From an uncultured Gammaproteobacteria bacterium (GTDB lineage: Bacteria; Patescibacteriota; Patescibacteriia; Veblenbacterales; UBA10138), in the NCBI GenBank assembly GCA_964453605.1, contig CAYVOI010000001.1, positions 420,095 to 484,094 on the forward strand: a DNA stretch of 64,000 bases, read 5' to 3'. Made by a program: the position numbers and the translations under genes. Position 1 is the stretch's first letter. Every line of letters begins with the position of its first letter. Shown here in pieces: positions 3,125-64,000 of the stretch. The notes under the pieces are model-generated. The model was not told where the DNA came from. It ran no database searches and saw nothing but the letters and a program-made list of their open reading frames with translations.

Positions 3125-3202
3125 GGCCTCATCGTCTAGCCCGGTCCAGGACGTCTCCCTCTCACGGAGAAAACTGGGGTTCGAATCCCCATGAGGCTAC
3201 CA
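3125..3202 (+). tRNA. tRNA-Glu (anticodon CTC) with encoded CCA
   Basis: Cloverleaf folded by hand: acceptor ggcctca/tgaggct; D-stem gtct/ggac; anticodon stem tctcc/ggaga with loop ctCTCac (U33, A37); T-arm tgggg-TTCGAAT-cccca; discriminator A + CCA. D-arm resembles E. coli tRNA-Glu (tcgtctag...caggac). Confidence 0.85.
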
Positions 3203-4706: not shown

Positions 4707-4846
4707 AGGTTATGAATGATTAAGGTAAGCTTTGCTCGTTTGGTCAAGCTCGGCAAATTAGAGTCGCAAATCACCGAATGGGGTAATCGGCCACGAAACG
4801 GAGAATAACCACGCCTGGGCCAAATTTACATCCCTAGCGACCATCC

Positions 4847-5059
4847 TCATGGGGGGTTAGAGAGCTGGTCGAGGTAGGCAAGAATCTCAAATCGCTCCTG
4901 TTTGTCATAGTCGTCCTTATCCACCAACTTGTTGAACCAGTAATGAACCACGCGGCTGCTAAAGCGCTGTCCTGTAATGGCGGTGGAAAAACATAAGTAC
5001 GAGCTCCAGCCAGGACGCCTTGTAACTAATTGTTTGTACCTACGCTCTATAGATTTCAT
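4847..5059 (-). CDS. Small excisionase/AlpA-like HTH protein (possible recombination directionality factor)
   Basis: STAITGQRFSSRVVHYW matches the Xis/MerR-type HTH_17 pattern (A-x3-G-x3-S-x-V-x2-W); lies next to the recombinase. Confidence 0.4.
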   Translation of the reverse strand: MKSIERRYKQLVTRRPGWSSYLCFSTAITGQRFSSRVVHYWFNKLVDKDDYDKQERFEILAYLDQLSNPP

Positions 5060-6158: not shown

Positions 6159-6252
6159 ATGACTTAATTATAGCGAAAAATGTTGATTTATGTTAATTTA
6201 ATGATACAACTTAATGGCCTAAACTTGGTATTTGCCAGGCATGGCTAAAAGA

Positions 6253-6332
6253 CCCAATGACGATACTGAGCTCTACGTTCAGCAACTCGTCATTGGGCCA
6301 TATCCCGAAAGGGGTATGGGGTTCGAAAGAAC
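6253..6332 (+). other. Structured intergenic element: an 11-bp inverted repeat followed by two adjacent GNRA-tetraloop hairpins
   Basis: cccaatgacga...tcgtcattggg; catatccc-GAAA-ggggtatg; ggttc-GAAA-gaacc. Confidence 0.4.
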
Positions 6333-6407
6333 CTAGCTGGCGTAGGGCTTTGTGTTTTGCCAAGAACCAACTCCAAAATTTCTTTTGTTTTACCTTAAAC
6401 CAAAATT

Positions 6408-9682: not shown

Positions 9683-11677
9683 CTAGTCGTCGTGCTTGCC
9701 GTTGCCCTTACCTTCTGACTTGTCGTGGTTCCCCTGGCTGTCTTGGTTACTGAGGCCCTGGGTACCAGACTTGCCATGTTCGTTATCGTTTTCACCCTGG
9801 CCCTGTCCGTTCTCTGACTTGTGCCCCTGCGGTTTAGCTGAAACCGTTAAGCCAGTGAGCGATTGCAAGCTGATGATGTTCTTGAACTTTTTACCCTTGG
9901 CGTGCCCGACTGCCCTGCCCTTAAACACCTTGAGGTTACAGTTAGCAGCGAGGTACACCGTGGTAGAGCCAGTTACCTGGTACAGGCGACCGTTGATAAG
10001 GCCGTTGGCACACACCTTACCCTGACGGTTCTCGTTCTCGCCTGAGAAGCTACCGGTTATCGCATGGCTGCCGGTGGCGTTGTTACCAGCTGCATCTTTA
10101 ATGACTGAGCCAGCCATAGTTACCGTGTCACCAACTGTTACCGTAGGCAGGGAAGTGCCGGCTGACAGGGTAATGGTGAGCATGGTGCCGCCGAGGTCCC
10201 AGGCCGCGCTGCCAATGTGTCCAGCGCCATCGAGCCAGCTGTGGCTGTTATTTAGCATGAGAGTTGAGTTGATGTTACTGTCCGTAATAGTGGGCTTGTT
10301 GGTAGCCTCACCAAAGGTGAGCACCACGCTGTCACCAGCTTCTGTAGCGTTCGTGCCGCCAGTGTTCTGGGCTACTGCGCTTGTAAGCACCGGGCCAGTA
10401 GTGTCAGTGGTAGTGAAGGTGCCGGTGATAGCGCTGCTGCCTGTGGCGCTGTTGCCACTCGCATCCTGCACCACTGAACCAGCCATAGTTACGGTGTCAC
10501 CCACAGCTACGGTAGGAACAGAGGTTGCACCGCTCAGTGTGATGGTAATGATAGTGCCAGCCGCATTCCATACCGCTGAACCAATATGGCCAGCCCCATC
10601 GAGCCAGCTGTGGCTGTTGTTCAAGGTGAAGGTAGTGTTGATGTTGCTGTCGGTAATAGCAGGCTTGTTGGTAGCCTCGTTAAACGTTACTGCTACGCTG
10701 TCGCCCGCTTCCTTGGCAATGGTACCGCCAGTGTTAGCTGCTACCGCGCTCGTGAGCACTGGGCCGGTGACATCACTGGTGAAGCTGCCGGTGATAGCCA
10801 TGCTGCCGCTAGCGCTGTTACCAGAGCCGTCGGTAATAACGCTGCCCATAACCGTTACGGTGTCGCCGGGCTCCACCGTAGGTAGGCTACCGTTGCCGCT
10901 TAGCGTGATGGTGTAAGCAGTACCAGCGGCGTTCCAGCTCGCTGACATGAGCACACCCAAGCCGTCGAGGAACGAGTGTCCGCTGGAGAGACCAAACACA
11001 CTCGGCAGGCTTCCAACTGTTATGACTGGTTTGTTGGTAGCTTCATTGAACGTCAACACCACGCTGTCACCAGCTTCCTTAGCACTGGTGCCGCCAGTGT
11101 TCATGGCTACAGCGCTCGTAAGGTGTGGGCCAGTAGTGTCGGCCGTGATCATGGCTGTGGTAACCGCCGTAGTGGTTGGAGAGTTGGCAGAGGTGACAAT
11201 GGCGTCGGTGGCGAGCTGGGCCGTGAAACCGTCAGCCGTGGCAGTGTCGCTCCAGGTTGAGCCGGTGGCCACCGTCACAAAGAACGTGGCACCAGTACCA
11301 ATGGTGTTGTTGCTGCCCGTGGTAATAGTCGTAGCTGAATCGACGTTCACCGTGCTCTGCGAACCAGCCAGCAAGTCTGAGCCGGCGTTAAAGCTGCCAT
11401 CGCCGTTGTCTTTATATACGGCGACCGAGGCGAGGTCAGAGCCTGCCAGCGTACTGCCGCTCACCTTGGTGAGGGTGACGTTGACACTAGAGAGCGTTTC
11501 ACCAGCGTCTTGTCCCAAAGAAAACTTAAACAGCGCCAGAGGAGCACTTGAGGCGGGTGCGACCTGTGGCGAGGTAACCAGGGAAACTGGTCCGGTGGTA
11601 ACCGTGACCGTGGCGTTGGCTACTGGCACAAACAGCGCCAGCTGCAACAGCGCCACCAGAGATGAAAATTTCTTCAT
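9683..11677 (-). CDS. Secreted or cell-surface protein with three tandem ~120-aa repeat domains and a Gly/Gln/Lys/His-rich C-terminal tail
   Basis: Signal peptide MKKFSSLVALLQLALFVPVANA; three repeats beginning TGPVLTSAVA.NTGGT...; the reverse-strand ORFs the track lists inside it are artefacts. Confidence 0.7.
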   Translation of the reverse strand: MKKFSSLVALLQLALFVPVANATVTVTTGPVSLVTSPQVAPASSAPLALFKFSLGQDAGETLSSVNVTLTKVSGSTLAGSDLASVAVYKDNGDGSFNAGSDLLAGSQSTVNVDSATTITTGSNNTIGTGATFFVTVATGSTWSDTATADGFTAQLATDAIVTSANSPTTTAVTTAMITADTTGPHLTSAVAMNTGGTSAKEAGDSVVLTFNEATNKPVITVGSLPSVFGLSSGHSFLDGLGVLMSASWNAAGTAYTITLSGNGSLPTVEPGDTVTVMGSVITDGSGNSASGSMAITGSFTSDVTGPVLTSAVAANTGGTIAKEAGDSVAVTFNEATNKPAITDSNINTTFTLNNSHSWLDGAGHIGSAVWNAAGTIITITLSGATSVPTVAVGDTVTMAGSVVQDASGNSATGSSAITGTFTTTDTTGPVLTSAVAQNTGGTNATEAGDSVVLTFGEATNKPTITDSNINSTLMLNNSHSWLDGAGHIGSAAWDLGGTMLTITLSAGTSLPTVTVGDTVTMAGSVIKDAAGNNATGSHAITGSFSGENENRQGKVCANGLINGRLYQVTGSTTVYLAANCNLKVFKGRAVGHAKGKKFKNIISLQSLTGLTVSAKPQGHKSENGQGQGENDNEHGKSGTQGLSNQDSQGNHDKSEGKGNGKHDD
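10034..11122 (-). repeat. Three tandem ~360-bp coding repeats inside the surface protein gene
   Basis: The protein-level repeats at aa 186-305, 306-427 and 428-548 map to these coordinates. Confidence 0.7.
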
Positions 11678-11821
11678 ACAAGCATGGGTTAATAGTTATA
11701 CTTAGATATACCCAGGCGTACCCGGGTACACACCTAATATATACGTATAATTTTAGGGTTTGTTTCGCTGTTACCTAAGAAAACCCCTCGTAATTTTACG
11801 CAGGTTTTCTTAGGTTTGGTG

Positions 11822-23403: not shown

Positions 23404-24270
23404 TTAGAAGTAGAAACTGGCACCTAAGGTCAGGCCCTCACGGCTGATGCCGCTCTGCGGCACCACCACGATGTGGTTTGGTTCAATACCACCCTGGTAG
23501 GCTAGGCTTAGCTGAATGCGGTCGTGGTGGGGCGTGTCGCCAAGGTTGGTGGAGCCAGTGATCCGTACCAGGTAGCGGGCACGTTGCTCAAGTTCAGTGT
23601 CGAGCTGGAGTGCCAGGCGGTAGTTCTCACTGCGCCAGACCGTGGCCAGTGCGTTAGCGTAGAACCGACGCTCGTACGGCGTAAAGGCATCGCTGGCAAA
23701 CATTTCTTTAGGTTCGGCCAACAGAAAGAAGTTCATGCGGATTGGCTGCGTGCCCACGGTCCAGGCGTAGTCAGCTTCCTCTTGCCCAATGTCGACCCTG
23801 ATCAGGTTTACGTCCTCTACTTCGATATAGATTTGCTGCAGGTCGCGCGCCTCGTCAATACTGGCCGCATCAATAGGGTCGATATAGTGCGTCGAGACGT
23901 GGAAGACAGCTGTCTGCGCGTATAAGTGGTAGAAGGGTAAACGGTGCCGGAAGGCGAGGCTGATGTCGAAGCTGCCGGCGTAGAGCTTGGCCCGGCGCTG
24001 CTTCAGGCCGCCCCACAGGAACTGGATGTAGGACTGAAGCGTTACCGACCAGTCGTCGTAGTTCGCTAGGTAGTACTTGTTCTGCAGGTCGAACCTGCCG
24101 ATGAAGCTGTTCCTGACGAAGTCGGTGGTATTGGCTGAGGCACCCAGGCTCTTGTCAAAATCAGCGGCGGCGTAACCACCAGCAAATAAACCGGTGCGGG
24201 GCTGGGCGAAGGCGCGCGGGTGCAGGCCCGCGAGCACCGCCGCGACGAGAAGTACAGCAGTGTGTTTCAT
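23404..24270 (-). CDS. Hypothetical secreted protein, beta-rich, ending in an aromatic residue (porin-like signature)
   Basis: Signal peptide MKHTAVLLVAAVLAGLHPRAFA; alternating hydrophobic pattern; C-terminal ...GASFYF. Confidence 0.5.
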   Translation of the reverse strand: MKHTAVLLVAAVLAGLHPRAFAQPRTGLFAGGYAAADFDKSLGASANTTDFVRNSFIGRFDLQNKYYLANYDDWSVTLQSYIQFLWGGLKQRRAKLYAGSFDISLAFRHRLPFYHLYAQTAVFHVSTHYIDPIDAASIDEARDLQQIYIEVEDVNLIRVDIGQEEADYAWTVGTQPIRMNFFLLAEPKEMFASDAFTPYERRFYANALATVWRSENYRLALQLDTELEQRARYLVRITGSTNLGDTPHHDRIQLSLAYQGGIEPNHIVVVPQSGISREGLTLGASFYF

Positions 24271-24404
24271 GGTTACCTCACAGCATGTGTTGGGGTTGTT
24301 GGTTTAGTGAATTGCCTTAGTGTTTGCGTATTTTCAAGGTGCGGGTAATTATGACCATCTTAGTACAGCCCTATCGGCCGTCAAGGCGGTGTGCCTTAAT
24401 GGTC

Positions 24405-24432
24405 TTGACAAGCCTGTTTTAGGGGGTATACT
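24405..24432 (+). promoter_or_regulatory. Sigma70-type promoter of the heat-shock operon
   Basis: TTGACA, 16-bp spacer, TATACT, immediately upstream of CIRCE. Confidence 0.55.
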
Positions 24433-24437
24433 GGGTG

Positions 24438-24464
24438 TTAGCACTCGGAGCTCGAGAGTGCTAA
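24438..24464 (+). promoter_or_regulatory. CIRCE operator (HrcA binding site)
   Basis: TTAGCACTC-ggagctcga-GAGTGCTAA, an exact match to the CIRCE consensus with a 9-nt spacer. Confidence 0.9.
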
Positions 24465-24477
24465 TTCAAAAACTTTC

Positions 24478-25170
24478 ATGCAGGAACGCCAGCACAACTT
24501 ACTTGCCCACGTAGTTCGAAGCTACATTCGAGAGGCTGAACCGGTAGGTTCCAAGGCCCTGGAGGGCACTTTAGGCTTAAGCTCGGCCACTATCCGGAAC
24601 GAAATGGCGGAGCTTGAGGCCGAGGGCTACCTGAGCCAGCCTCACACTTCGGCTGGCCGGGTGCCGACGCTTAAGGGGTACCAGTTTTTCCTGGACCACC
24701 TGGTAGAGCGGCAAGAGCCCAAAGCCGCTGAACAGCGGACCCTCAGGGAGCTGATGGGTGAGCCCCAGGTAACCCACGAGCAGTTTTCCAAAAAATTGGC
24801 TCGTACCTTGGCCGAGTGTGCGGGTGAGGCCGCGGTAGTTGGTTTGAGCCGCCATGATTCGTACTACACTGGCCTGTCGAACTTGTTTGAGCAGCCAGAG
24901 TTTCGTGCGCTCGACATGGTGCGCGCCTTAGGCCAGGTGGTGGATCACCTGGACGAGGCTATGCTCAAGCTGTACCGCACCCTGACGACTATGGATGACG
25001 TAGCAGTAAAAATTGGTTCAGCCAACCCGTTTGGTGAAGACTGTGCGCTCGTTTTTACCACCTATGGCAAGGGGAACACCAGTGTTATTGGTATTTTGGG
25101 CCCCTTACGCATGGACTACGACGCCAACTTAGGACGTTTACACTATGTCAGACAACTCTTCCATTCCTAA
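24478..25170 (+). CDS. hrcA: Heat-inducible transcription repressor HrcA (short form)
   Basis: N-terminal wHTH LLAHVVRSYIREAEPVGSKAL; position directly after CIRCE and before grpE. Confidence 0.8.
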   Translation: MQERQHNLLAHVVRSYIREAEPVGSKALEGTLGLSSATIRNEMAELEAEGYLSQPHTSAGRVPTLKGYQFFLDHLVERQEPKAAEQRTLRELMGEPQVTHEQFSKKLARTLAECAGEAAVVGLSRHDSYYTGLSNLFEQPEFRALDMVRALGQVVDHLDEAMLKLYRTLTTMDDVAVKIGSANPFGEDCALVFTTYGKGNTSVIGILGPLRMDYDANLGRLHYVRQLFHS

Positions 25171-25627
25171 TCCAGAACCCGGCGCCGAGCTCGAACAGCT
25201 GAAGGCCCAGGCCGCCGAGTACCTGCAGGGTTGGCAGCGCGCTAAGGCTGACTACGCCAACCTGAAGCGCGAGAGCGAGGCCAAATTCAGCGAGCTCACC
25301 CAGTATGCCACCAGCGAGCTCCTCACCGAACTTTTGCCACTGGTAGACTACTTCAAACATGCGCTCCGCGCTGTGCCGCCAGAGCAAAAAGGCCTGCCTT
25401 GGGTAGAGGGGATACAGCATATTCAATCAAAGCTTGAGCAGGTGCTTGCTTACCACGGGGTTAAGGAGCTGGAAGTAGTAGGTGAGAAGTTTGACCCCGG
25501 CGTACATGAGGCAGTAGGGGAAGTTCAAAGCACCGAACCCTCGGGCACGGTCGTAGAAGAAGTAAGAACCGGTTTTATGCTCCATGACAAGCTTCTACAG
25601 CCAGCCCGCGTTAAAATTGCTAAATAA
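25145..25627 (+). CDS. grpE: Nucleotide exchange factor GrpE
   Basis: Coiled-coil N-terminus (YLQGWQRAKADYANLKRE) and the C-terminal beta domain. Confidence 0.85.
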   Translation: MSDNSSIPNPEPGAELEQLKAQAAEYLQGWQRAKADYANLKRESEAKFSELTQYATSELLTELLPLVDYFKHALRAVPPEQKGLPWVEGIQHIQSKLEQVLAYHGVKELEVVGEKFDPGVHEAVGEVQSTEPSGTVVEEVRTGFMLHDKLLQPARVKIAK

Positions 25628-25649
25628 ATACTCACTATTAACGCATACT

Positions 25650-25814
25650 ATGGACTACATTTGCCCCGAGTGCGGCTACACTGACGAGGCTAAAGGCCGC
25701 TGCCCCTCTTGCGACGTGCCCCTTATCCATATAGACAAAGTGGGTGAAGGTGCCGAAGGTGATGAGGGTGAGGCGGAGGACACCATGTCACCGCACGATG
25801 AGGACGAGGAGTAA
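25650..25814 (+). CDS. Small zinc-ribbon protein with an acidic tail (start moved to the internal ATG)
   Basis: CPECGYT...CPSCD forms a CxxC...CxxC ribbon. Confidence 0.5.
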   Translation: MDYICPECGYTDEAKGRCPSCDVPLIHIDKVGEGAEGDEGEAEDTMSPHDEDEE

Positions 25815-25859
25815 GTTGTACTAACTATTAACCTACAACCTAGGGAAGGAGAACACACT

Positions 25860-26258
25860 ATGCCTATTGTACGCTGGGCACCAATGCTACCTTCGTTTGA
25901 TGACATGTTTGACGGTTCGGGTTTCCCGAGTTTCGCCCCCGCGCTCGACGTGTACCAAACCAAGGACGACGTGGTGGTAGAAGCACCACTGCCAGGGTTA
26001 GACCCTGATAAGGTCACTGTCTCTATTGAGAACGACGTTTTGACGCTCGAAGGTAACTTCGAGCACAAGACCGAGGTGGATGACAAGAACTACTACCGTA
26101 GGGAAGTGCGCGCTGGTGCGTTTCACCGCCAAGTGGCGCTCCCCACTGCAGTTTCTGGTGAGCAGGCCAAGGCGACGTATGAAAAAGGTGTTTTGAAGAT
26201 TGTTATCCCTAAAGAGGAACGAGCAAAACCAAAAACAGTTAAAGTGGAAATTAAGTAG
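25860..26258 (+). CDS. Hsp20/alpha-crystallin family small heat-shock protein
   Basis: Alpha-crystallin domain (VDVYQTKDDVVVEAPLPG...FHRQVALP). Confidence 0.85.
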   Translation: MPIVRWAPMLPSFDDMFDGSGFPSFAPALDVYQTKDDVVVEAPLPGLDPDKVTVSIENDVLTLEGNFEHKTEVDDKNYYRREVRAGAFHRQVALPTAVSGEQAKATYEKGVLKIVIPKEERAKPKTVKVEIK

Positions 26259-26330
26259 TTGCTGGGAAAGCGAGGAACCGCCGCTAGGCGGGGCCGAAGC
26301 CCCGTACCGTGCCGTAGGCTCTGGTGCGGG

Positions 26331-26375
26331 GAGGAGCGCGCTAAACCCAAGACGGTTAAGGTAGAGGTAAAGTAA
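26331..26375 (+). repeat. Orphan, synonymously recoded copy of the last 14 codons plus stop of hsp20, in frame and 117 nt downstream of the real copy (26214..26258)
   Basis: gaggagcgcgctaaacccaagacggttaaggtagaggtaaagtaa encodes EERAKPKTVKVEVK*; the real end gaggaacgagcaaaaccaaaaacagttaaagtggaaattaagtag encodes EERAKPKTVKVEIK*. Confidence 0.85.
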
Positions 26376-26472
26376 CCCCTCAGGTCCGATGTTTCTCGGA
26401 CGCTCGGGTGAGGCCGCAAGACTTTACGACCTCACGCGAGACAATTAATTCGACTAACATTTACTAGATACT

Positions 26473-28389
26473 ATGCCAAAGATACTCGGAATTGATTTAG
26501 GCACCACCAACTCCTGCGTCGCCATTATCGAGGGCGGCCAGCCCAAGGTGCTGGAGAACAAAGAGGGCATGCGCACCACGCCTTCGGTGGTCGCTACCAC
26601 TAAAACTGGTGAGCGTTTGGTAGGGCTCTTGGCTAAGCGCCAGGCAGTTACCAACCCGCAGAACACGCTTTACTCTGTTAAACGTCTCATTGGCCGCCGC
26701 TGGGATGATGCGGAGGTGCAACGTGACCTCAAGGTGCTGCCGTTTAAGATCAAGCAGGCGGGTAACGGTGTAAAAATTGAGATGAACGGTAAAGACTACT
26801 CCCCACAGGAAATTAGCGCCATGGTGCTGCAGAAGCTGAAGGCCGACGCTGAGGAAAAGCTAGGTGAGAAAATTACCGAGGCGGTTATTACCGTGCCTGC
26901 CTACTTCGACGACAGTCAGCGCCAAGCCACCAAAGACGCCGGGGAAATAGCTGGCCTCACCGTGAAGCGCATTATCAACGAGCCCACGGCCGCCGCCCTA
27001 GCCTATGGTTTCGACAAGAAAAAGGACGAGAAGATAGCCGTCTATGACCTTGGCGGTGGTACGTTCGACATCTCCATTCTGGAAGTGTCCGCTGACACCG
27101 TAGAGGTTAAGGCCACGAACGGTGACACCCACCTTGGTGGTGACGACTTTGACCAGCGCATCATTGGTTGGATTGTAGACGAGTTTAAAAAGGAGAATGG
27201 TATTGATCTGTCCAAAGACCCGCTCGCCCTACAGCGCGTTAAGGAGTCAGCCGAAAAGGCGAAAATAGAGCTCTCGACTGCTACCGAGACAGAGATAAAC
27301 CAGCCATTCATTACCTCAGACGCCGCTGGCCCGAAGCACCTGGTGATGAAGATCACGCGCGCCAAGCTGGAGAGTATAGTGGGGGATTTGGTCGAGAAAA
27401 CGCTGGAGCCTACCAAAAAGGCCTTGGCTGATGCTGGCCTTAAGACCACCGACATTCACGAGGTGGTGCTGGTTGGTGGCATGACGCGCATGCCCATGGT
27501 TATTCAGGCGGTGGAAAAGTTCTTTGGCAAAAAGCCCAACGCCAGCGTGAACCCGGACGAAGTGGTGGCAGTGGGTGCCGCGGTGCAGGCCGGTGTGCTG
27601 CAAGGTGAAGTGCGCGACGTCCTCTTGCTCGACGTAACACCACTCTCACTTGGTATTGAAACCTTGGGCGGGGTTATGACCAGGCTTATTGAGCGCAACA
27701 CCACGGTGCCAACCTCCAAGAGCCAGGTATTCTCGACAGCTGCCGACGGGCAAACCTCGGTTGAGATTTTGGTGCTCCAAGGTGAACGTGAGTTTGCCAA
27801 GGACAACAAAACCTTGGGTCGGTTTATTCTAGACGGTATTCCGCCGGCGCCGCGCGGCATGCCGCAGGTGGAGGTGAGCTTCGATATTGACGCTAACGGT
27901 ATTCTCTCAGTTAAGGCAAAAGACAAAGCCACCAACAAAGAGCAGAAGATTACTATCACTGCTTCGTCAGGCCTTAGTAAGGACGAGGTTGAGAAAATGA
28001 AGAAAGAAGCCGAGCTCCATGCTGAAGAGGACAAGAAACAGCGCGAGCTGGTGGATATGAAGAACACAGCCGAGAGTACGGTGTATCAGACCGAGAAAAT
28101 GCTGAAAGAGCAGGGTGACAAGGTGCCAGCCGAGGTTAAGACCGAGGTGGAGGCAGGGCTGGCTGATGTGAAAACGGCTAAGGATGGCACCGACGCCGCA
28201 GCTATTAAGAACGCACTCGATGCGTTGCAGCAGGCTGCTATAAAGATTGGTGAGGCTATGTACAAGTCCGCCCAGGGCGGATCCGCCTCGGACGGAGCGT
28301 CTAACGGGTCTTCGACAGGTGATGGACAATCGTCAGGCGACAAAAAGGACGAACCCATCAGTGGAAGTTACGAGGAGGTTAAGAAGTAG
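26473..28389 (+). CDS. dnaK: Molecular chaperone DnaK (Hsp70)
   Basis: [16 protein letters not shown] and the other Hsp70 signatures, full length. Confidence 0.95.
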
Positions 28390-28414
28390 TAATCGCTGCC
28401 ATTAGACTAAAATT

Positions 28415-28840
28415 ATGAATCCAGATTTAATTCAGGCACTAATGAGTCAGATAATTGTTCCGCTTGGTGTTAGTATCAGCGCAAATTTGGTTTCCAAAGC
28501 TTTAGAAGATTCATTGGTTAATGGTGAAGTAAAGTCTTTAGATGAATTAAAACAAAAATTAGCTTCGTTACTGAAAGTCGACAACGCCAACATTATCGCG
28601 GATAAAGTAGTTACCTTTTTAGCTGAAAGTGGAGATATTCAAATCCGTGGTTCTAGGGTTTTTGGTAGTTCAGTCTTGTTGGCTTCATCTTCAGGTACAG
28701 AATTAAACTTTGGAGATAATAGTAGTGTTGAAACAAAAGCAAAGAGTGCTATTTATGCGGGAGCAAGAGCAGGAGTCATCGCTAGAGGTGGTGCTCAAAT
28801 AGAATTAGATGAGCAAGGTAATATTATGTTCCGTACCTAA
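28415..28840 (+). CDS. Hypothetical protein, strongly AT-rich relative to its flanks, inserted between dnaK and dnaJ
   Basis: About 35% GC against about 58% nearby; 141 aa; Gly/Ser-rich C-terminal half. Confidence 0.55.
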   Translation: MNPDLIQALMSQIIVPLGVSISANLVSKALEDSLVNGEVKSLDELKQKLASLLKVDNANIIADKVVTFLAESGDIQIRGSRVFGSSVLLASSSGTELNFGDNSSVETKAKSAIYAGARAGVIARGGAQIELDEQGNIMFRT

Positions 28841-28861
28841 CTATTAAAACGTTATTAGATT

Positions 28862-29152
28862 ATGCCTAACGAACAACAGCAGCAAATTCAGGTGAAGGTT
28901 ACCGACGAGGTACTGAAGGGTGTGTACTCTAACCTTGCCCAGATTGCCCACACCAAAGAGGAGTTTGTGATAGATTTCATGAGTATGATGCCGCCACAGG
29001 GCATTGTGAACGCCAGGGTGTACCTGAACCCAGCCCACGCTAAACGCCTGGCTCATGCGCTCATGGACAACGTTAAGAAGTACGAGGAGCAGTTTGGCAA
29101 GGTGGACGAGGGCAGCCAGACCGCGCCGGAAATTGGCTTTAAGACTACCTAA
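28862..29152 (+). CDS. Small conserved hypothetical protein (possibly a DUF3467-like family member)
   Basis: 96 aa; QVKVTDEVLKGVYSNLAQIAHTKEEFVIDF...; between dnaK and dnaJ. Confidence 0.45.
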   Translation: MPNEQQQQIQVKVTDEVLKGVYSNLAQIAHTKEEFVIDFMSMMPPQGIVNARVYLNPAHAKRLAHALMDNVKKYEEQFGKVDEGSQTAPEIGFKTT

Positions 29153-45420: not shown

Positions 45421-47194
45421 CCTCAACTGGAAAATCGGTGGTGAGGCTGGCTACGGTATACTGTCGGCTGGGGAAATTTTTGCCTACGCTTGTGCCCACG
45501 GCGGCTTGGAGACCTTTGCCTATTTAGAGTACCCCTCACTCATTCGCGGTGGGCACAATACCTACCAGGTGTGGGCCAGAGCCGACAACGTGCAATCGCA
45601 CTCGCACCTGGTTGATCTACTGGTAGGGCTGAACAAAGAAACCATTGATAGGCATGTAGAGGAAGTAGTGCCTGGTGGCGGGTTAGTGTACGATACCGAC
45701 GATAAACTTTTGCGCGGCTACAAGTGTACCAAAAAAGGCATGGCTGCTTTCCCCATGCCGCTTGAAACCCTGGCCAGGAGTACGGGCGGGGAAAAGCTGA
45801 TGCGGAACGCCGTGGCGGTGGCCGCGAGCTTTGCCTTGGTGCAGTTTCCCTTTGAGTACCTGACTGAGCTTTTAAAGCGCGCCTTTGGTAAGAAAGGTGA
45901 GAAGGTGGTAAACCTAAACATTGCAGCCGCTAAGGCTGGTTATGATTATGTGGCCAAGCACTTTGCGGGTAAGTTTTTATACAAACTCGAGGTGCGGCCT
46001 GAGCGTGGGAAACGTTTGCTGGTCAATGGTAACGAGGCTATAGCTATGGGTGCTATTAAGGGTGGCGTAAAGTTCTACGCGGCTTACCCTATGACACCCG
46101 CCTCCTCCATTCTCCATTACCTGGCAACGCAGGAGAGGAACTACAAGTTGGTGGTAAAGCAAACCGAAGATGAGCTGGCCGCCATGAACATGGTGGCAGC
46201 CGCTGGCTTTGCAGGTGTCAGGGCTATGACCGCCACCTCAGGTGGTGGCTTTTCGCTGATGGTGGAAGCCCTAGGCCTGGCTGGCATGGTGGAGTCACCG
46301 GCGGTGGTTGTACTCGCGCAGCGCCCAGGCCCAGCCACGGGTTTGCCAACCTGGACTGAGCAAGGTGACTTACGTTTTGCCATGCACGCCGCCCAAGGTG
46401 ATTCGCCGCGCCTTATTGTGGCACCCGGCGACCCCGAAGAGTGCTTTGAGCTTACCTTTCATGCCTTTAACGTGGCGGAAAAGTACCAGCTGCCGGTAAT
46501 TGTGATGACCGATAAGTACCTGGCTGAGGCTAGACAAACCGTGCCCTTCTTTAAGACCGTCGGACTTACGATAGATAGGGGCGAGTGGGCCGATACATCG
46601 AAGCTGCCGCCTGATGCGCGCTTCAACCGCTACGCCGATACGGCGAATGGCGTAAGCCCTAGGAGCATCCCCGGCCAACCTGGTGGCATGTTTGTGGCTA
46701 ATAGCGATGAGCACGAGCCGACTGGATTAGCGGACGAGGAAGTTGGGACGAGAAAGATTATGATGGAAAAAAGGATGCGCAAGTTACAGTTCGCCAAGAC
46801 CGACGTGCCCGAACCCATAAAGCTCTACGGCCCTAAGGAAGCCGATGTTACGCTAGTGGGGTGGGGGAGTACGAAAGGTCCGATTTTAGAAGCCATCAAG
46901 ATGTTAGAGCGCGAGCCTAATAAGGCGAAGCCCGGTACCGACCCGGCCAGGACGGGGTCTGGTATCCGGGTAAACTTTTTGCAGGTGCGGTTACTCCATC
47001 CATTCCCGGTAAAAGAGGTGGATGCAGTTTTGAGGCAAGCCAAGCGCCGCGTGCTGATTGAAAATAATTATTCCGGCCAGCTCGGCGGTTTGATTCGGGA
47101 AAAAACGGGTATAGATATTACCGAACGACTGCTCAAGTACGACGGCCGACCCGTGCATCCGGAGGAGATTGTACAAAAACTAGTGGGCACTTAA
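45401..47194 (+). CDS. korA: 2-oxoacid:ferredoxin oxidoreductase alpha subunit (start at the ATG with an AAGGAG RBS)
   Basis: PFOR/KOR alpha domain architecture; followed by the TPP-binding beta subunit. Confidence 0.85.
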   Translation: MEHKTNNLNWKIGGEAGYGILSAGEIFAYACAHGGLETFAYLEYPSLIRGGHNTYQVWARADNVQSHSHLVDLLVGLNKETIDRHVEEVVPGGGLVYDTDDKLLRGYKCTKKGMAAFPMPLETLARSTGGEKLMRNAVAVAASFALVQFPFEYLTELLKRAFGKKGEKVVNLNIAAAKAGYDYVAKHFAGKFLYKLEVRPERGKRLLVNGNEAIAMGAIKGGVKFYAAYPMTPASSILHYLATQERNYKLVVKQTEDELAAMNMVAAAGFAGVRAMTATSGGGFSLMVEALGLAGMVESPAVVVLAQRPGPATGLPTWTEQGDLRFAMHAAQGDSPRLIVAPGDPEECFELTFHAFNVAEKYQLPVIVMTDKYLAEARQTVPFFKTVGLTIDRGEWADTSKLPPDARFNRYADTANGVSPRSIPGQPGGMFVANSDEHEPTGLADEEVGTRKIMMEKRMRKLQFAKTDVPEPIKLYGPKEADVTLVGWGSTKGPILEAIKMLEREPNKAKPGTDPARTGSGIRVNFLQVRLLHPFPVKEVDAVLRQAKRRVLIENNYSGQLGGLIREKTGIDITERLLKYDGRPVHPEEIVQKLVGT

Positions 47195-52856: not shown

Positions 52857-53305
52857 TAGTGCTAAGCACACCTGATAAGCCGAATTCTGTATCCCGCCGA
52901 TGGCGGGACGGCGATTATCTATCTAGGCTCTACCTTGCGGTAGAGCTCAAGCTACCAACCCGACCGTAAAACTCACTTGTGGTGAGCCACGGCCCTATTT
53001 GGTATTGCACCGGGTAGAGTTTACCTAGCCGCCTGTGTCACCACAGACGCTGGTGGGCTTTTACGTTACTTCGCCGAAGCGAGTTATCCCGCGTAAGCGG
53101 GCCCACCGTTTCACCCCTTACCCGCCAGCTGGCGGGCGGGACTGTTCTCTGTTGTACTTGTCCTGCGGCGTGCCTTGCGGCAGCCAACGGCTCCTGTTAG
53201 GAGCTACCCCTCCCTATGCCTGGGAGCAGCGTGGTGTTCGGACTTTCCTCCCCGTAAAATCCCTTACGGGATCACGGGGCAATCGCCTAGGTGTACCTAG
53301 CTTGA
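52857..53305 (-). ncRNA. rnpB: RNase P RNA, bacterial type A (ends approximate)
   Basis: Minus-strand transcript contains GGAGGAAAGUCCGAAC (P4), GUAAGGGGUGAAACGGUGGG, GGUAAACUCUACCCGGUGCAAUACCAAAUAGGG and ACAGAAUUCGGCUUAUCAGGUG, aligning block by block with E. coli M1 RNA; a P1 helix is present. Confidence 0.9.
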
Positions 53306-53359
53306 CTAGTCTAGCATAAACTCGTAAAAAGTCAAGGAACTCGGTATACTAATTGGCGT

Positions 53360-60895: not shown

Positions 60896-62485
60896 ATGCT
60901 AGGTACGGGGCGCTTGAACACTAAACTTACCGGCGGTGCACTGGTCATCGCCTTTTTTTCTGTAGCCTCCAGGCTCCTGGGGGTGGTCAGGGACCGCGTG
61001 TTGGCCTCACACTTTGGAGCCGGTACCGTGCTCGATAGCTACTATGCCGCTTTTAAAATTCCTGACTTCATTTTCACCATTCTGGTGTTAGGCGCGTTTG
61101 GCTCGGCCTTTATTCCCGTGTACATTCAACTGAGGGAGCGAGCTGGAGAGGCTAAGGGGGTCGAACTCGCGCAGACCATGTTCAACATGCTGGTGGGCGC
61201 GCTCACCGTCTGCGCTGTTTTGGGAGCCGTGTTTGCCCCACAGCTCATGCCGCTTATAGCGCCAGGGTTTGACGTCGCGCGCCTCAGTCTGGCGATAGAC
61301 CTGTCGCGGCTGATGCTCATAGCCATTATCTTTTTTGGTGCCTCTAACCTTATTGGGTCAGTGCTCCAGGCACACCAGAGTTTTGTGGCGTACTCAGCTG
61401 CGCCGATTGTCTACAATCTTGGCATCATCGCAGGGCTGTACCTGTTGGTACCCGCCTTGGGCCCCGTAGGGTTGGCGTGGGGTGTGGTGCTAGGTAGCGC
61501 TCTGCACCTCGGGGTCCAGGTACCATCGGCAGTGAAGTTCGGGTGGCGGTGGCGGTGGCGCTTCAGCTGGCGTGACTCGGCCGTCCGAGAGGTGGTGCGG
61601 CTCATTGGCCCCCGGACCATTGGCGTAGCAGCCAGCTCTTTAGAACAGCTTATTACCGCCGTCTTTCTTTCTAGCTTAAGCGTTGGTAGTGTGGCCGCAT
61701 TCAACCTGGCTTCCAACTTACAAAGTTTCCCCATCAACGTGTTTGGTGTTTCGCTGGCTATTGCCGCTTTTCCTATTTTCAGCCAAGCGTTTAGCGCTAA
61801 CGACCACACTAGCTTTATACAACACTTTAAGGATAGTACACGCCTGATTCTGTTCTACGTCGTGCCACTCTCTATTCTGTTCTTGGTGCTTCGGGCACAG
61901 ATGGTGCGTGTGGTTTTAGGCAGTGGTGCGTTTAGCTGGGACGATACTATTCGTACCGCTGAGGTGTTAGGGTTTTTAGCTATGGCCATGGTCTCTGACA
62001 GCCTGGTACCGTTGGTGGCGCGGGTCTTTTACGCACTTGGTGATACTAAAACACCTGCCTGGACCGCCGTTGGCACAGTGGCTGTAAACCTCGTGCTCTT
62101 GCTGGTCCTTAAGACTTACGGTTTGGCAGGCATTGGCTTTGCTTACGTGCTATCACGTGCGTTTAGCTTGAGCCTGCTCGTGCTCTTCTTGGGTAAGCGC
62201 TTGGGGCAACTAGGTGGCGAGTATATACTACAAGGTGCAACCCGCATGACCTTGGCGGGTGTGGCGGCGGGTGGTGTAGCGTACGGTGCCCTCCACGTAC
62301 TCGCACCCTTGGTTGATATGCATACGTTTGTAGGCATATTTATCCAAGGCGTGGGGGCGGGCGCACTGGGCGCTCTGAGCTACGTGCTGCTCGCTATGCT
62401 CTGGCACTTGCCAGAGGTTCAATTTGTGGAGCGCTGGTTAGGTTCAGCTTGGCGCATAACGAAACGACTATGGACTCCGGCTTAA
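60896..62485 (+). CDS. murJ: Lipid II flippase MurJ
   Basis: MviN/MurJ N-terminus (...ASRLLGVVRDRVLASHFGAG...YYAAFKIPDF); 14 TM helices. Confidence 0.85.
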   Translation: MLGTGRLNTKLTGGALVIAFFSVASRLLGVVRDRVLASHFGAGTVLDSYYAAFKIPDFIFTILVLGAFGSAFIPVYIQLRERAGEAKGVELAQTMFNMLVGALTVCAVLGAVFAPQLMPLIAPGFDVARLSLAIDLSRLMLIAIIFFGASNLIGSVLQAHQSFVAYSAAPIVYNLGIIAGLYLLVPALGPVGLAWGVVLGSALHLGVQVPSAVKFGWRWRWRFSWRDSAVREVVRLIGPRTIGVAASSLEQLITAVFLSSLSVGSVAAFNLASNLQSFPINVFGVSLAIAAFPIFSQAFSANDHTSFIQHFKDSTRLILFYVVPLSILFLVLRAQMVRVVLGSGAFSWDDTIRTAEVLGFLAMAMVSDSLVPLVARVFYALGDTKTPAWTAVGTVAVNLVLLLVLKTYGLAGIGFAYVLSRAFSLSLLVLFLGKRLGQLGGEYILQGATRMTLAGVAAGGVAYGALHVLAPLVDMHTFVGIFIQGVGAGALGALSYVLLAMLWHLPEVQFVERWLGSAWRITKRLWTPA

Positions 62486-62517
62486 TTCGTAATTTTTGCA
62501 TCATAGCTCACATCGAC
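62470..62517 (+). repeat. Orphan, synonymously recoded copy of the first 16 codons of lepA, overlapping the murJ stop
   Basis: atggactccggcttaattcgtaatttttgcatcatagctcacatcgac (MDSGLIRNFCIIAHID) against the real start atggaaccgtcacacattcgtaatttctgtattatcgctcatattgat (MEPSHIRNFCIIAHID) 103 bp downstream. Confidence 0.85.
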
Positions 62518-62572
62518 CCCGCAGGAGAACGCTGTGCGTTCCCTACGGGGCAAGCCACGACTACCGCACACT

Positions 62573-64000
62573 ATGGAACCGTCACACATTCGTAATTTCT
62601 GTATTATCGCTCATATTGATCATGGAAAGTCGACCTTGGCCGATAGGTTCCTGGAGGTTACAGGTACCGTAGCGAAGCGCGATATGCGCGCGCAGCTCCT
62701 TGACCAAATGGATTTGGAACGTGAGCGGGGCATAACCATTAAGCTGCAGCCGGTCGCCATGCACTGGCGCGGGCACTTGCTCAACCTCATCGACACCCCG
62801 GGGCACGTCGACTTTACCTACGAGGTGTCGCGTTCTCTGGCCTGCGTGGAGGGCGCCATACTCTTAGTAGACGCCACCCAGGGTATACAGGCACAGACCA
62901 TAGCTAACTTTGAGCTGGCACGTGAGCAGAAGCTCAAAGTTATTCCGGCGGTGAATAAAATAGATATGCCCGCCGCCAATGTGGAGAGCGTAGTGGCAGA
63001 ACTCTGTCAGTTAGTAGGTTGCACGCCTTCAGACGTGTTGAAAGTTTCAGCCAAAGATGGCACAGGGGTAGAAACGTTGCTCCAAGCTGTCTTGGACCGA
63101 GTACCGCCACCAAAAGCTAGTGCGCCTGCAGCTACTACCAGGGCACTCATTTTTGACTCAGCCTACGACGATTTTCGCGGCGTGGTGGCGGCGGTGAGGG
63201 TGGTAGATGGTACCTTAGGTAAGGGTGGTCAGTACCGACTCTTAGGTAGTGGTGCGACTGGGGAACTTTTAGAAGTTGGGACCTACACGCCAAAACTTAA
63301 GCCAACTGATGCTTTGGGACCTGGTGAAATTGGTTATGTGGTCACTGGTCTTAAAGACATCCGCCAAGCCAGAGTTGGTGACACCATAGTCACTGGTGCA
63401 GGCACACCCGAGCCGTTGCCTGGCTACCGCGAGGTAAAACCCATGGTGTTCGCTGGGTTTTACCCAGGGGTGGGGGAGAGTGCAGATAAGCTCAGGGATT
63501 CGTTGGGAAAGCTTAAGCTTAGCGATGCCAGTTTAAACTTTGAGGGTGAACATTCGCAAGCACTAGGGTTTGGTTTTCGGTGTGGGTTTTTAGGGTTACT
63601 CCACCTTGATATTGCCCGTGAACGTTTGAAACGCGAGTACAACCTCAAGGTCACCATAACCACGCCCTCGGTCGCGTACGAAGCTGATCTCAAAACCGGT
63701 GAGCAGCTTAGTGTTCATGGACCCTTGGAGCTGCCGACGCCAGACCGCATTCTCGAGATTCGCGAGCCGGTGGTTAAAGTTGATATTGTTACACCCATGG
63801 ATTACCTCGGGAACCTGATGGCAATGGTTCAAGAGTTCAGGGGTACCTACCGCACCACCGATTACCTGGGTGAGGGCGAGCACAACACGCGAGCAGTTTT
63901 ACGCTACGAGTTACCTTTGAATGCCATACTGGTCGATTTTTACGACCAGGTGAAGAGCGTTAGCGCAGGGTATGCCTCGCTGAACTACGAATTTCTAGCC
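62573..64000 (+). CDS. lepA: Elongation factor 4 (LepA), 3' end truncated by the window edge
   Basis: G1-G4 GTPase motifs (AHIDHGKST, DTPGH, NKID); the frame is open to the window end. Confidence 0.9.
   Translation, partial: MEPSHIRNFCIIAHIDHGKSTLADRFLEVTGTVAKRDMRAQLLDQMDLERERGITIKLQPVAMHWRGHLLNLIDTPGHVDFTYEVSRSLACVEGAILLVDATQGIQAQTIANFELAREQKLKVIPAVNKIDMPAANVESVVAELCQLVGCTPSDVLKVSAKDGTGVETLLQAVLDRVPPPKASAPAATTRALIFDSAYDDFRGVVAAVRVVDGTLGKGGQYRLLGSGATGELLEVGTYTPKLKPTDALGPGEIGYVVTGLKDIRQARVGDTIVTGAGTPEPLPGYREVKPMVFAGFYPGVGESADKLRDSLGKLKLSDASLNFEGEHSQALGFGFRCGFLGLLHLDIARERLKREYNLKVTITTPSVAYEADLKTGEQLSVHGPLELPTPDRILEIREPVVKVDIVTPMDYLGNLMAMVQEFRGTYRTTDYLGEGEHNTRAVLRYELPLNAILVDFYDQVKSVSAGYASLNYEFLA

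Follow-up and report, generated by a model that had tools for sequence, protein, structure and literature searches.

A re-coded hsp20 gene end and a two-hairpin module ahead of a host-like orphan tail suggest exchange of a short DNA patch between diverged Patescibacteria

The DNA analyzed here, a stretch of 64 kb from an 876-kb Patescibacteria genome (hereafter the window), contains a heat-shock operon in which the end of hsp20 is present twice. The operon starts with a sigma-70-like promoter and a perfect CIRCE operator (in the control for the latter, 3 of 100 shuffles matched at ≤3 mismatches) and continues through hrcA, grpE, a small open reading frame, hsp20 and dnaK. Relatives have a 46–54-aa gene in the same place as the small reading frame, which matched no NCBIfam family and, in a search for closer strains, no recorded sequence. 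Neither a promoter nor a terminator was predicted in the hsp20–dnaK intergenic region. The features, by position in the window, are the following.

24405 to 24432, plus strand: sigma-70-like promoter of the heat-shock operon, TTGACA-16-TATACT (11 of 12 matches)
24438 to 24464, plus strand: CIRCE operator TTAGCACTC-N9-GAGTGCTAA, upstream of hrcA (0 mismatches)
24478 to 25627, plus strand: hrcA (24478-25170) and grpE (25145-25627), with Pfam matches HrcA and GrpE on the identical locus L081
25650 to 25814, plus strand: small 54-aa CxxC...CxxC open reading frame between grpE and hsp20, conserved in relatives
25860 to 26258, plus strand: hsp20 (132 aa; PF00011; 369 homologues), the functional gene, ending with the inserted tail
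26214 to 26258, plus strand: T1, the translated AT3-rich tail EERAKPKTVKVEIK plus TAG, part of the insert; about 90% identical to the tails of AT-rich relatives
26259 to 26330, plus strand: GC-rich spacer, 72 nt
26268 to 26334, plus strand: two-hairpin module AAGCGA-hp1-GAAG-hp2, a covariance-model match
26274 to 26295, plus strand: hairpin 1, its stem sequence lineage-specific and its pairing kept
26300 to 26331, plus strand: hairpin 2, CCCCGUACCG..GGCUCUGGUGCGGGG, conserved in sequence; its final G is the first base of T2
26331 to 26375, plus strand: T2, the orphan host-like tail EERAKPKTVKVEVK plus TAA, the displaced ancestral gene end
26384 to 26401, plus strand: hairpin A of the native hsp20–dnaK intergenic region
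26403 to 26440, plus strand: hairpin B, CUCG-G-GUGAGG...CCUCAC-G-CGAG, conserved with covariation across relatives
26473 to 28389, plus strand: dnaK, co-transcribed with the upstream genes

An earlier note on this DNA had described an in-frame duplication of the hsp20 end with almost purely synonymous recoding, and our analysis bears this out: T2 follows T1 at an offset of 117 nt, in the same frame in the window, behind the 72-nt spacer. T1 reads gag gaa cga gca aaa cca aaa aca gtt aaa gtg gaa att aag tag, and T2 reads gag gag cgc gct aaa ccc aag acg gtt aag gta gag gta aag taa. The two have 33 of 45 nt in common, with a longest identical run of 5 nt, and their peptides match at 13 of 14 residues, the exception being an I-to-V change. 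When 11 random substitutions were simulated in 42 nt, none of 20,000 replicates kept ≤1 amino-acid change (P<5e-5); across the carriers of the duplication, T1 and T2 differ at 11–13 of 42 nt with 0–1 amino-acid change. Because the differences are nearly all synonymous, both copies descend from functional genes. The contrast between an AT-rich functional copy and a host-like orphan likewise stands, with a GC3 of 0.21 in T1 (range 0.15–0.21 among T1 copies) versus 0.64 in T2, next to 0.585 in the hsp20 body, 0.61 in grpE and 0.65 in dnaK. As far as sequence comparison can tell, this codon usage and the similarity to the tails of AT-rich relatives indicate that T1 is foreign. No second hsp20 paralogue that could have been the donor was found in the window.

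Several local origins of the pair do not fit. Slipped-strand or simple tandem duplication, already dismissed in the earlier note, is excluded by copies that are saturated at synonymous sites, to which their differences are confined, and by a spacer that is unlike the local sequence and has no counterpart there. A diversity-generating retroelement would be expected to leave its A-rich copy outside the coding gene, the reverse of what is seen, and the differences are synonymous third-position ones. Cytosine-deamination hypermutation was rejected as well, since the excess of G-to-A changes in hsp20, and of C-to-T changes at lepA (described below), follows from a shift of two-fold degenerate codons toward A/T endings. 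The spacer itself folds into two stable hairpins (-43.1 kcal/mol, z = -3.3). Both of the small GC hairpins reported earlier are thus present, but the second is larger than had been described. A search of Rfam 15 over 24200-26600 at E <= 10, which covered the spacer and the intergenic region, gave no relevant match, and over the whole window Rfam returned only RNase P, LOOT and one tRNA.

Is the arrangement peculiar to this genome? The window locus is found with identical sequence in an independent Logan assembly of run SRR12313480 (L081), and the same architecture with a homologous spacer is present in L005 and L096, two unrelated MAG contigs from other studies. A concatenation of two strain haplotypes of the hsp20 end by the assembler, which a metagenome-derived source and copies differing like alleles might bring to mind, has a practically negligible chance of being correct: the structure is identical in the second assembly and homologous in the two MAG contigs, and concatenation cannot create a 72-nt spacer that has no counterpart in normal alleles. 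The Hsp20 proteins of the three carriers are mutually only 62–86% identical, and the right-hand junction is the same in all of them. Each carrier has an insert-free nearest relative, L082 for the window, L095 for L005 and L092 for L096, and these sister pairs are discordant for the insert at amino-acid identities of 89%, 93.5% and 90%. The insert is also missing from about 30 other loci. Look-ups P0004, P0005, P0010, P0031, P0038 and P0060 returned ordinary single-tail loci only, and a pattern search of 241 million metagenome records, together with a viral scan, yielded ordinary hsp20 genes and chance matches and no further copy, so that rarity and spread are hard to quantify.

Comparison with the insert-free relatives gives the polarity. 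L082, at 89% amino-acid identity the closest relative of the window, has one tail only, and behind it stand the intergenic hairpins that also follow T2; this tail and intergenic region match T2 and its downstream flank at 92% over 78 nt. In L005, T2 agrees with the L095 tail at 42 of 45 nt, the first 23 being identical, as against about 32 of 45 for T1, and the flanks of these two loci are about 92% identical; the last 30 nt of the L096 T2 match the L092 tail at 29 positions. A direct repeat of the gene end flanks the insert, which is missing from relatives with an intact site, and the tails of these relatives are T2-like rather than T1/T2 hybrids, which makes simple deletion from a composite unlikely. 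Because the relatives' single tail and downstream sequence align with the orphan, these alignments show T2 to be the ancestral gene end, as the earlier note had predicted for the GC-rich copy, with the AT-rich tail, its stop codon and the spacer as the insert.

At the right junction of all three carriers, the spacer meets GARGAR CG. at a GA(G/A)GA(G/A) motif beside a G-run. The left join is variable: excess divergence begins 9 nt upstream of T1 in L005 and about 15 nt upstream in L096, and the boundary is indistinct in the window, where L082 is about 20% diverged throughout. L005 is missing seven native nucleotides (tcccaag). Between lineages, the T2 copies differ at 9–11 of 42 nt with 0–2 amino-acid changes. 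The L096 copy carries a K-to-N change where 24 fully read homologue tails and a tally of 120 hits have Lys (rarely Arg); we read this as a sign of relaxed constraint on the orphan.

Could T2 still be translated? The earlier note had placed the orphan in the hsp20 frame, which is true in the window but is not a conserved property, since L005 has T2 in the +1 frame. If ribosomes passed the TAG by programmed read-through, frameshift or bypass, a longer Hsp20 with two C-terminal V/I-x-V/I tails would result, and the spacer is indeed a multiple of three and open in frame in the window (72 nt) and in L096 (63 nt), with a stop codon followed by stable hairpins in a manner reminiscent of recoding sites. 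The L005 spacer of 76 nt breaks this pattern, the spacer peptide is not conserved, the same nucleotides being read in different frames, and none of the Rfam matches concerns the site. Given a frame that varies among carriers and a TAG that serves as a normal stop in this genome, ending 14 of 39 long open reading frames including dnaK, such recoding is very improbable. A small open reading frame ending in T2 was also rejected, its starts not being conserved (TTG in the window, GTG elsewhere in L005 and L096) and its spacer frames differing. The antisense frame at 26123-26419 on the minus strand is a product of both tails read backwards, and the L005 spacer would break it. T2 is thus probably untranslated.

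The explanation that we favor, with a probability of roughly 55%, is that a patch of diverged DNA was introgressed by recombination, that this patch moves between lineages, and that the orphan is a relic. T2 (26331-26375) would be the original end of hsp20, now an untranslated remnant within the hrcA-grpE-hsp20-dnaK transcript, with a diverged homologous patch of about 117 nt placed directly before it that consists of the re-coded T1, the stop codon and the two-hairpin module of about 65 nt. T1 would now terminate an Hsp20 that is essentially unchanged, its C-terminal V/I-x-V/I motif having I in place of V. Rather than having been made in this genome, the patch may be one member of a long-standing cassette or allele that passes between related Patescibacteria and enters resident hsp20 genes via recombination with DNA taken up by the cell, joining on the left within homologous coding sequence at a variable position and on the right where the resident tail begins or a few bases inside it. 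With every further entry, a freshly functional resident tail would come to stand behind the cassette, so that the orphan appears intact and host-like in every carrier. The route is likely to be short-patch, homology-facilitated recombination after DNA uptake. Patescibacteria of the Saccharibacteria are naturally competent (PMC10633639), homology-facilitated illegitimate recombination is documented (de Vries & Wackernagel 2002, as cited in PMC6382021), and so is the short-patch insertion of ectopic single strands, SPDIR (10.1101/2023.11.22.568220). The homology-anchored recombination proposed in the earlier note fits the left end, which in L005 and L096 lies at a variable 9–15 nt ahead of the new tail, but its reading as the scar of one recombination is too narrow for a cassette that is present in three lineages and whose spacer family has another copy in the window.

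A purely illegitimate join would not recur at the same right junction in three deeply diverged lineages, so donors that already carry the composite are needed; the shared junction implies one founding event followed by spread through such donors. The loci and scans searched yielded no composite donor beyond the three carriers, nor any locus in which T1 is naturally followed on its 3' side by the module. If the composite moved as a whole, the left part of T2 should decay, yet T2 differs between lineages by few amino acids, as given above, and the L005 copy equals the L095 tail over its first 23 nt.

Vertical descent offers another account of the shared junction. It supposes a single ancient tandem duplication of the tail, the first intergenic hairpin and the start of hairpin B, lost many times since, with selection maintaining T2 either because it is translated as an alternative tail or because it belongs to a regulatory RNA that governs dnaK. 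In sequence, the spacer end GCTCTGGTGCGGGG is similar to the 5' strand of native hairpin B, GCTCGGGTGAGG, with the junction at a GAGG/GARGAG microhomology; the divergence of T1 and spacer among carriers is of the same order as that of the hosts; and the length of T2, its stop position and nearly its whole peptide are kept in three lineages. The spacer, however, is unlike each carrier's own hairpin A, T2 has no conserved frame, start codon or recoding signal for translation, and the K-to-N change in L096 is atypical. Moreover, in L095 both the tail and the "gtt ccc aag" ahead of it are T2-like or host-like and not T1-like, so that simple deletion cannot give the insert-free relatives, and three discordant sister pairs with about 30 loci free of the insert would require very many precise losses. 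We consider this account improbable.

The spacer module is not confined to hsp20. From the spacers of the three hsp20 carriers we built a covariance model, which was run against the window and 680 kb of related loci, and a further event at the start of lepA, which has the same succession of orphan, hairpin and re-coded copy, contains a weak match to it. These features lie as follows.

46909 to 46973, plus strand: second module copy (covariance model), spanning the korA insertion
46916 to 46960, plus strand: 45-nt in-frame insertion PNKAKPGTDPARTGS in the 2-oxoacid:ferredoxin oxidoreductase alpha gene (korA), lineage-specific
62470 to 62517, plus strand: orphan lepA 5' end MDSGLIRNFCIIAHID, overlapping the end of murJ
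62517 to 62551, minus strand: GC-rich hairpin GCCCCGUA...UGCGGGG between the two lepA starts, a weak model match
62573 to 62620, plus strand: functional lepA start MEPSHIRNFCIIAHID

The korA copy scores 33 bits, the next best match in the related loci 16.6 bits, and the window holds two strong copies in all (at hsp20 and korA) besides the weak one at lepA. A further weak match at 53247-53307 on the minus strand is the 5' part of RNase P RNA and not a module. All module copies fold in the same way; in a model-fitted alignment of only 4 sequences, pairing extends to 95% of cells, compared with 34–51% in slid controls, and both sides have changed in 6 pairs. BLAST found no other spacer copy except the homologous L005 locus, and a Smith–Waterman search of the masked window gave nothing above shuffles, the korA copy being found by the covariance model only. 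No terminal inverted repeats or target-site duplication were found at the korA copy, and the duplicated 45 nt at hsp20, being re-coded, do not represent a duplicated target site. In L004, hairpins of the same style stand directly after stop codons.

The lepA 5' end (62470-62620) is a second event of this kind in the window, with 7 of 11 common codons synonymously re-coded between the two starts. Its hairpin folds better on the strand antisense to lepA, and when each locus is read in the orientation of its own hairpin, hsp20 and lepA show the same order of functional copy, hairpin and orphan. Duplications were also seen at the 5' end of dnaK in L005 and at the 3' end of an FtsX-like gene in L002, where an identical stretch of 32 nt is followed by 7 codons, every one of them re-coded; both have spacers different from the module. 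An apparent duplicate of the dnaJ start in L059 is a separate small J-domain open reading frame and a different phenomenon.

A related spacer copy inside korA without a duplicated flank points to mobility of the module itself. The two-hairpin module could then be a tiny non-autonomous mobile element, mobilized in trans, whose gene-end versions carry a re-coded "surrogate arm", which would keep the target gene intact while displacing its native end, in the manner of integrative elements that rebuild the 3' end of the gene they enter. The korA copy lies exactly on a lineage-specific insertion, the structure is conserved with compensatory changes, the same junction occurs in three lineages with the module missing from each nearest relative, and the related hairpin at lepA, in opposite orientation, has the same polarity when read in its own direction. 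The targets are very conserved motifs (the Hsp20 tail, the LepA G1 region, the DnaK N-terminus), as for homing elements. Against this, there is no recombinase, transposase or, apart from read-through frames, any open reading frame in or beside the insert, T1 and T2 have no identical core of more than 5 nt, and a variable left boundary and seven missing nucleotides in L005 are unexpected from site-specific insertion. The korA copy lacks duplicated flanks and its model match runs into native-looking codons (ERE, GIR), plain sequence similarity between copies does not exceed that of shuffles, the dnaK and FtsX-like duplications have different spacers, and there are only 2–3 copies in 64 kb. We regard such an element as a possible but doubtful source of the arrangement. 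We further speculate, as a rather unlikely generalization, that Patescibacteria harbor minute (~45–120 nt), protein-less mobile hairpin modules in or beside highly conserved gene ends, carrying surrogate last or first 11–16 codons so that essential genes (hsp20, lepA, perhaps dnaK) survive, homing-like and of fixed polarity, with movement either in trans or through the machinery that the cell itself has for DNA uptake and recombination.

What would be the relevance of such events? Patescibacteria have tiny genomes, few recognized mobile elements and, for most lineages, no genetics; routes of DNA exchange are therefore largely inferred. On our favored explanation of an introgressed patch, re-coded duplicates of gene ends are compact, searchable fossils of exchange between diverged lineages, which give polarity, patch size (~100–120 nt) and junctions. 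If they are common, short-patch homeologous recombination in uncultured bacteria could be read out from them directly, and they would be a warning for annotation, in that orphan gene ends or in-frame GC-rich insertions may be products of recombination or of mobile elements. If the module itself is mobile, it would be a minimal element of a new kind, one by which the target gene is protected. In the heat-shock operon, the single CIRCE-controlled transcript that carries hsp20 and dnaK is predicted to gain about -43 kcal/mol of structure between these two genes through the insert; the added hairpins may affect mRNA stability or dnaK expression, and could shift the relative expression of the two genes.

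Among known systems, short palindromic repeats occur in or beside genes as REP/BIME, MITEs and the Rickettsia palindromic elements, the last of these in frame within open reading frames. The module resembles them in being GC-rich, about 65 nt long and composed of two hairpins with conserved pairing, and in having at least two copies in 64 kb, one of them in frame inside an enzyme gene. Unlike them, it has no terminal inverted repeats or target-site duplication and its copy number is seemingly very low; to our knowledge, re-coded duplicates of a neighboring gene end are not a property of these families. Integrative elements that bring a surrogate gene end include prophage e14 or phage 21 in E. 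coli icd, islands in tRNA and tmRNA genes, and cis-mobilizable remnants. As there, the hsp20 end is present twice, the copy in the insert is translated and differs mostly synonymously, the native end is orphaned, and presence varies among relatives. In contrast to those elements, the hsp20 insert measures 117 nt and has no integrase and no identical core longer than 5 nt, its left boundary varies, and L005 is without seven native bases.

Short-patch or homology-facilitated recombination, finally, is unlike the hsp20 case in three respects: product and right junction recur in three diverged lineages, as a heritable, transferable cassette and not a unique scar; the patch always comes with a structured hairpin module; and the resident sequence is duplicated, or displaced, instead of being replaced. 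The likeness lies in diverged DNA joined through homology on one side and with little or no homology on the other, in a patch of about 100–120 nt with a variable left boundary, and in a host group with demonstrated competence (PMC10633639).

Our analysis of the duplicated hsp20 end revealed a recurrent, structured cassette that goes beyond a single recombination scar. Every element that the earlier note had described, namely the two tails, their shared frame and offset, the spacer hairpins and the codon bias, is present.

Features of the hsp20 operon in the window
24405-24432, upstream of hrcA: strong, near-consensus sigma-70-like promoter (TTGACA-16-TATACT)
24438-24464, directly after the promoter, upstream of hrcA: perfect CIRCE operator
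25860-26258, + strand: hsp20
26214-26258, + strand: T1, the last 14 codons of hsp20 and TAG
26331-26375, + strand: T2, second tail copy with a TAA stop, in the same frame 117 nt downstream of T1, beyond a 72-nt spacer
26384-26401: native hairpin A
26403-26440, between hsp20 and dnaK: native hairpin B, long and bulged (CUCG-G-GUGAGG...CCUCAC-G-CGAG)

T1 and T2 are identical at 33 of 45 nt, with a longest identical run of 5 nt, and encode EERAKPKTVKVEIK and EERAKPKTVKVEVK, respectively; none of 20,000 simulations of 11 random substitutions left one amino-acid change or fewer. T1 has a GC3 of 0.21 and T2 one of 0.64; the hsp20 body, grpE and dnaK have values of 0.59-0.65. The host is a Patescibacteria (CPR) bacterium, the group to which every close Hsp20 homologue belongs. 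Small heat-shock protein C-termini typically carry a V/I-x-V/I motif, and the tail EERAKPKTVKVEVK, which contains one, is near-invariant in this Hsp20 family (the exact ending PKEERAKPKTVKVEVK occurs in 29 of 120 homologues). Two diverged genes can therefore share the peptide yet differ at nearly all synonymous sites.

The order hrcA-grpE-(54-aa Cys-rich ORF)-hsp20-dnaK constitutes a single operon, likely under HrcA control. The hsp20-dnaK interval has no predicted promoter or terminator, so that T1, the spacer, T2 and hairpins A and B would all be internal to one transcript. Hairpin B is kept at the same place in six related loci (L005, L082, L083, L086, L092 and L095), its upper stems covary, and no Rfam family matched it; it may act in RNA processing or stability. 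Rfam matches at gathering score in the window are RNase P RNA class A (52860-53298, - strand), LOOT RNA (6216-6334, + strand) and a tRNA (3125-3199, + strand). Immediately after dnaK lies an AT-rich island (28400-28900; GC 0.33-0.41 versus 0.53 for the window) holding a 141-aa ORF (28415-28840) with no NCBIfam match. A motif resembling ACTAAC(A/T)(T/A)TTAAC, followed by (A/C)(A/T)ACT-ATG, precedes start codons at 25627-25652, 25815-25862, 26450-26475 and 62555-62575, mostly without a Shine-Dalgarno sequence, and may be a promoter or short-leader signal.

The same architecture of tail, TAG, GC-rich spacer and second tail with its own stop recurs in two unrelated contigs from other studies.

Further carriers of the cassette
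L005, Kerfeldbacteria MAG JACRFN010000073: 76-nt spacer; Hsp20 68% identical to the window's
L096, ENA ERZ27249422: 63-nt spacer; Hsp20 62% identical to the window's and 86% to that of L005

Concatenation of two strain haplotypes by the assembler, which the earlier note had feared, cannot be the source of a homologous spacer shared by unrelated contigs. Together with a Logan assembly of run SRR12313480 that is identical to the window locus, these carriers exclude an assembly artefact, to which we assign practically no probability. Translation of T2 by read-through or bypass of the hsp20 TAG is very improbable, given that T2 lies in the +1 frame in L005, that the spacer-encoded peptide lacks conservation and that TAG is the stop of 14 of the 39 long ORFs.

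Comparison with relatives shows which copy is native. L082, the closest to the window locus (89% amino-acid identity), has one tail; together with the intergenic region behind it, this tail aligns to T2 plus downstream flank at 92% over 78 nt. L095, the nearest to L005 (93.5% at the amino-acid level, flanks ~92% in nucleotides), likewise has a single tail, matching L005 T2 at 42 of 45 nt, the first 23 identical, versus only ~32 of 45 for T1, and L092, the nearest to L096 (90%, amino acids), matches the last 30 nt of its T2 at 29 positions. T2 is therefore the ancestral, displaced end, and T1, its stop and the spacer are the insert; the polarity proposed beforehand, with the GC-rich end as ancestral, is thus borne out. 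Since 'gtt ccc aag gaa gag cga' in L095 corresponds to 'gta cca aaa gag gaa aga' in L005, and 7 native bases are absent in front of T2 in L005, simple deletion from composites (insert plus T2) cannot give the insert-free alleles. An ancient duplication with a functional T2 would account for the conservation of T2; it demands many exact losses, however, and T2 lacks a conserved frame, start codon or recoding signal for translation, so that we consider it improbable. The integrity of T2 is most simply accounted for if each carrier gained the insert recently relative to its split from the insert-free sister, T2 having been a working tail until then. One sign of decay is a K->N change in the orphan T2 of L096, where 24 fully read homologue tails and the tail tally of 120 matches have Lys (rarely Arg). 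Five of the six differences between L096 T2 and L092 fall within the first 15 nt of T2, as expected if its leftmost part travelled with the cassette.

Excess divergence starts 9 nt (L005) or ~15 nt (L096) left of T1, as would fit a join, on that side, within homologous coding DNA. Third positions of T1 are A/T-rich in the window and L005 (GC3 0.15-0.36); in L096, T1 has a GC3 of 0.43-0.46 and T2 is no richer. These AT-rich third positions, along with a ~90% identity between T1 and the tails of L002 and other AT-rich relatives, point to a diverged donor. Between lineages, T1 differs at 6-13 and T2 at 9-11 of 42 nt, mostly synonymously in both. The insert is discordant in three sister pairs (window/L082, L005/L095 and L096/L092) and missing from ~30 further loci of this hsp20 family. 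Despite this, the three carriers share one right-hand junction (spacer | GARGAR-CG.) and have homologous spacers. Three independent illegitimate events are thereby excluded; the pattern would argue either for a single founding event, after which the composite spread, or for a site-directed process.

We propose, with a probability of roughly 0.55, that a short stretch of homologous, diverged DNA was introgressed. The earlier note's recombination with diverged donor DNA is supported as a general mechanism. Cultivated Patescibacteria have been shown to be naturally competent (PMC10633639). In homology-facilitated illegitimate recombination (HFIR), foreign DNA is joined by way of a single homologous anchor (PMC6382021), and replication forks can take in ectopic single strands via microhomologies (10.1101/2023.11.22.568220). 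Once formed, the composite could act as donor; during transfer the insert would loop out, and the flanking heteroduplex may stop at or just inside the resident tail. The outcome would be a normal Hsp20 C-terminus with T2 as a silent passenger, and it is conceivable that the two added hairpins change the 3'-end stability of the upstream mRNA or dnaK expression.

Folding of the window spacer gives two stable hairpins (-43.1 kcal/mol, z = -3.3), and the spacer's plan, AAGCGA / hairpin 1 / GAAG / hairpin 2, holds in all three carriers. The stem sequence of hairpin 1 is different in every lineage, and that of hairpin 2 is conserved (CCCCGYACCG.GC...GCUCUGGUGC(U)GGGG, with bulged U residues). A covariance model of the three spacers, searched against the window and related loci (680 kb), found a fourth copy in the window at 46909-46973 (33 bits; next best match 16.6 bits). 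It coincides with an in-frame insertion of 45 nt, specific to this lineage (46916-46960, PNKAKPGTDPARTGS), in the gene for the 2-oxoacid:ferredoxin oxidoreductase alpha subunit (korA), which folds like the hsp20 spacer and was not found in the solved homologue 5B46, in seven homologues (one 79% identical) or in L098 DNA. In an alignment of only these four sequences, fitted to the covariance model, 95% of cells are paired and six pairs are changed on both sides (34-51% paired in slid controls). Plain sequence similarity of the korA copy to the module is not above shuffles, and the covariance match partly spans codons of native appearance. Separately, L004 has at 4817-4861 a hairpin GUCCCGAU-UU-AUCGGGAC, then GAAG, directly on a stop codon, with a stem near-identical to hairpin 1 of the L005 spacer; CGAAGGATCCCGT is present after hsp20 in L014 too.

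Attention was drawn to the lepA start (TIGR01393) by a weak covariance-model match at 62517-62551, minus strand.

Duplication of the lepA 5' end in the window
62470-62620: whole duplication
62470-62517: orphan start, overlapping the murJ end, ATG GAC TCC GGC TTA ATT CGT AAT TTT TGC ATC ATA GCT CAC ATC GAC (peptide MDSGLIRNFCIIAHID)
62517-62551: GC-rich hairpin, minus-strand reading GCCCCGUA...UGCGGGG, in the 55-nt spacer after the orphan start
62573: working start, MEPSHIRNFCIIAHID...

Synonymous re-coding affects seven of the 11 codons common to the two copies, and the functional copy is once more the AT3-richer one; the signature is that of hsp20. The hairpin folds at -31.8 kcal/mol antisense to lepA versus -23 on the other strand, and in its own orientation both loci are ordered functional copy, hairpin, orphan. 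L005 has a re-coded working dnaK start preceded by two nested orphan starts ('atgccaaaaat' and 'atgccaaaaattttaggtattgacctcggt'; 2375-2610), and after each orphan comes an AT-rich inverted repeat (CCCTCC.AAGTTTT...AAAA.TT.GGAGG); this repeat also occurs upstream of dnaK in L086. In L002 (1306-1459), an FtsX-like permease gene has the ending PARRAADLDPIEALRYE* twice, in frame and 45 nt apart, the first 32 nt identical and the next 7 consecutive codons all synonymously different; here, in an AT-rich genome, the orphan has the higher GC content. These duplicates indicate that the phenomenon is general in these genomes, the hsp20 cassette being one instance of a wider Patescibacteria pattern of re-coded gene-end duplications, and that the GC-rich module is present in some, not all, of them. 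The peptide GLLVASLNV, shared by two adjacent paralogous genes (10101-10916 and 10947-11705) at 10101-11705 of the window, reflects ordinary tandem paralogy rather than a duplicated gene end.

A mobile mini-element bearing a surrogate arm would explain the korA copy, the identical right-hand junction and the shared polarity; lacking any recombinase, identical core or fixed left end, it is a tentative alternative, less likely than introgression. The interest of the system is moderate, and would be higher if the hairpin module proved to be a mobile element. In size, structure and in-frame insertion in an enzyme gene the module is akin to REP/MITE/RPE-type palindromic elements, from which it differs in having no terminal repeats, target-site duplication or high copy number; re-coded copies of gene ends are not known to accompany such elements. 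Gene-end duplications are left by integrative elements supplying a surrogate 3' end, such as e14 in icd and islands in tRNA genes. The hsp20 locus works like these, but without a recombinase, identical core or fixed left end; it also works like the products of HFIR or short-patch recombination, from which its recurrent junction and conserved structured module set it apart. The locus is thus a strict member of neither class.
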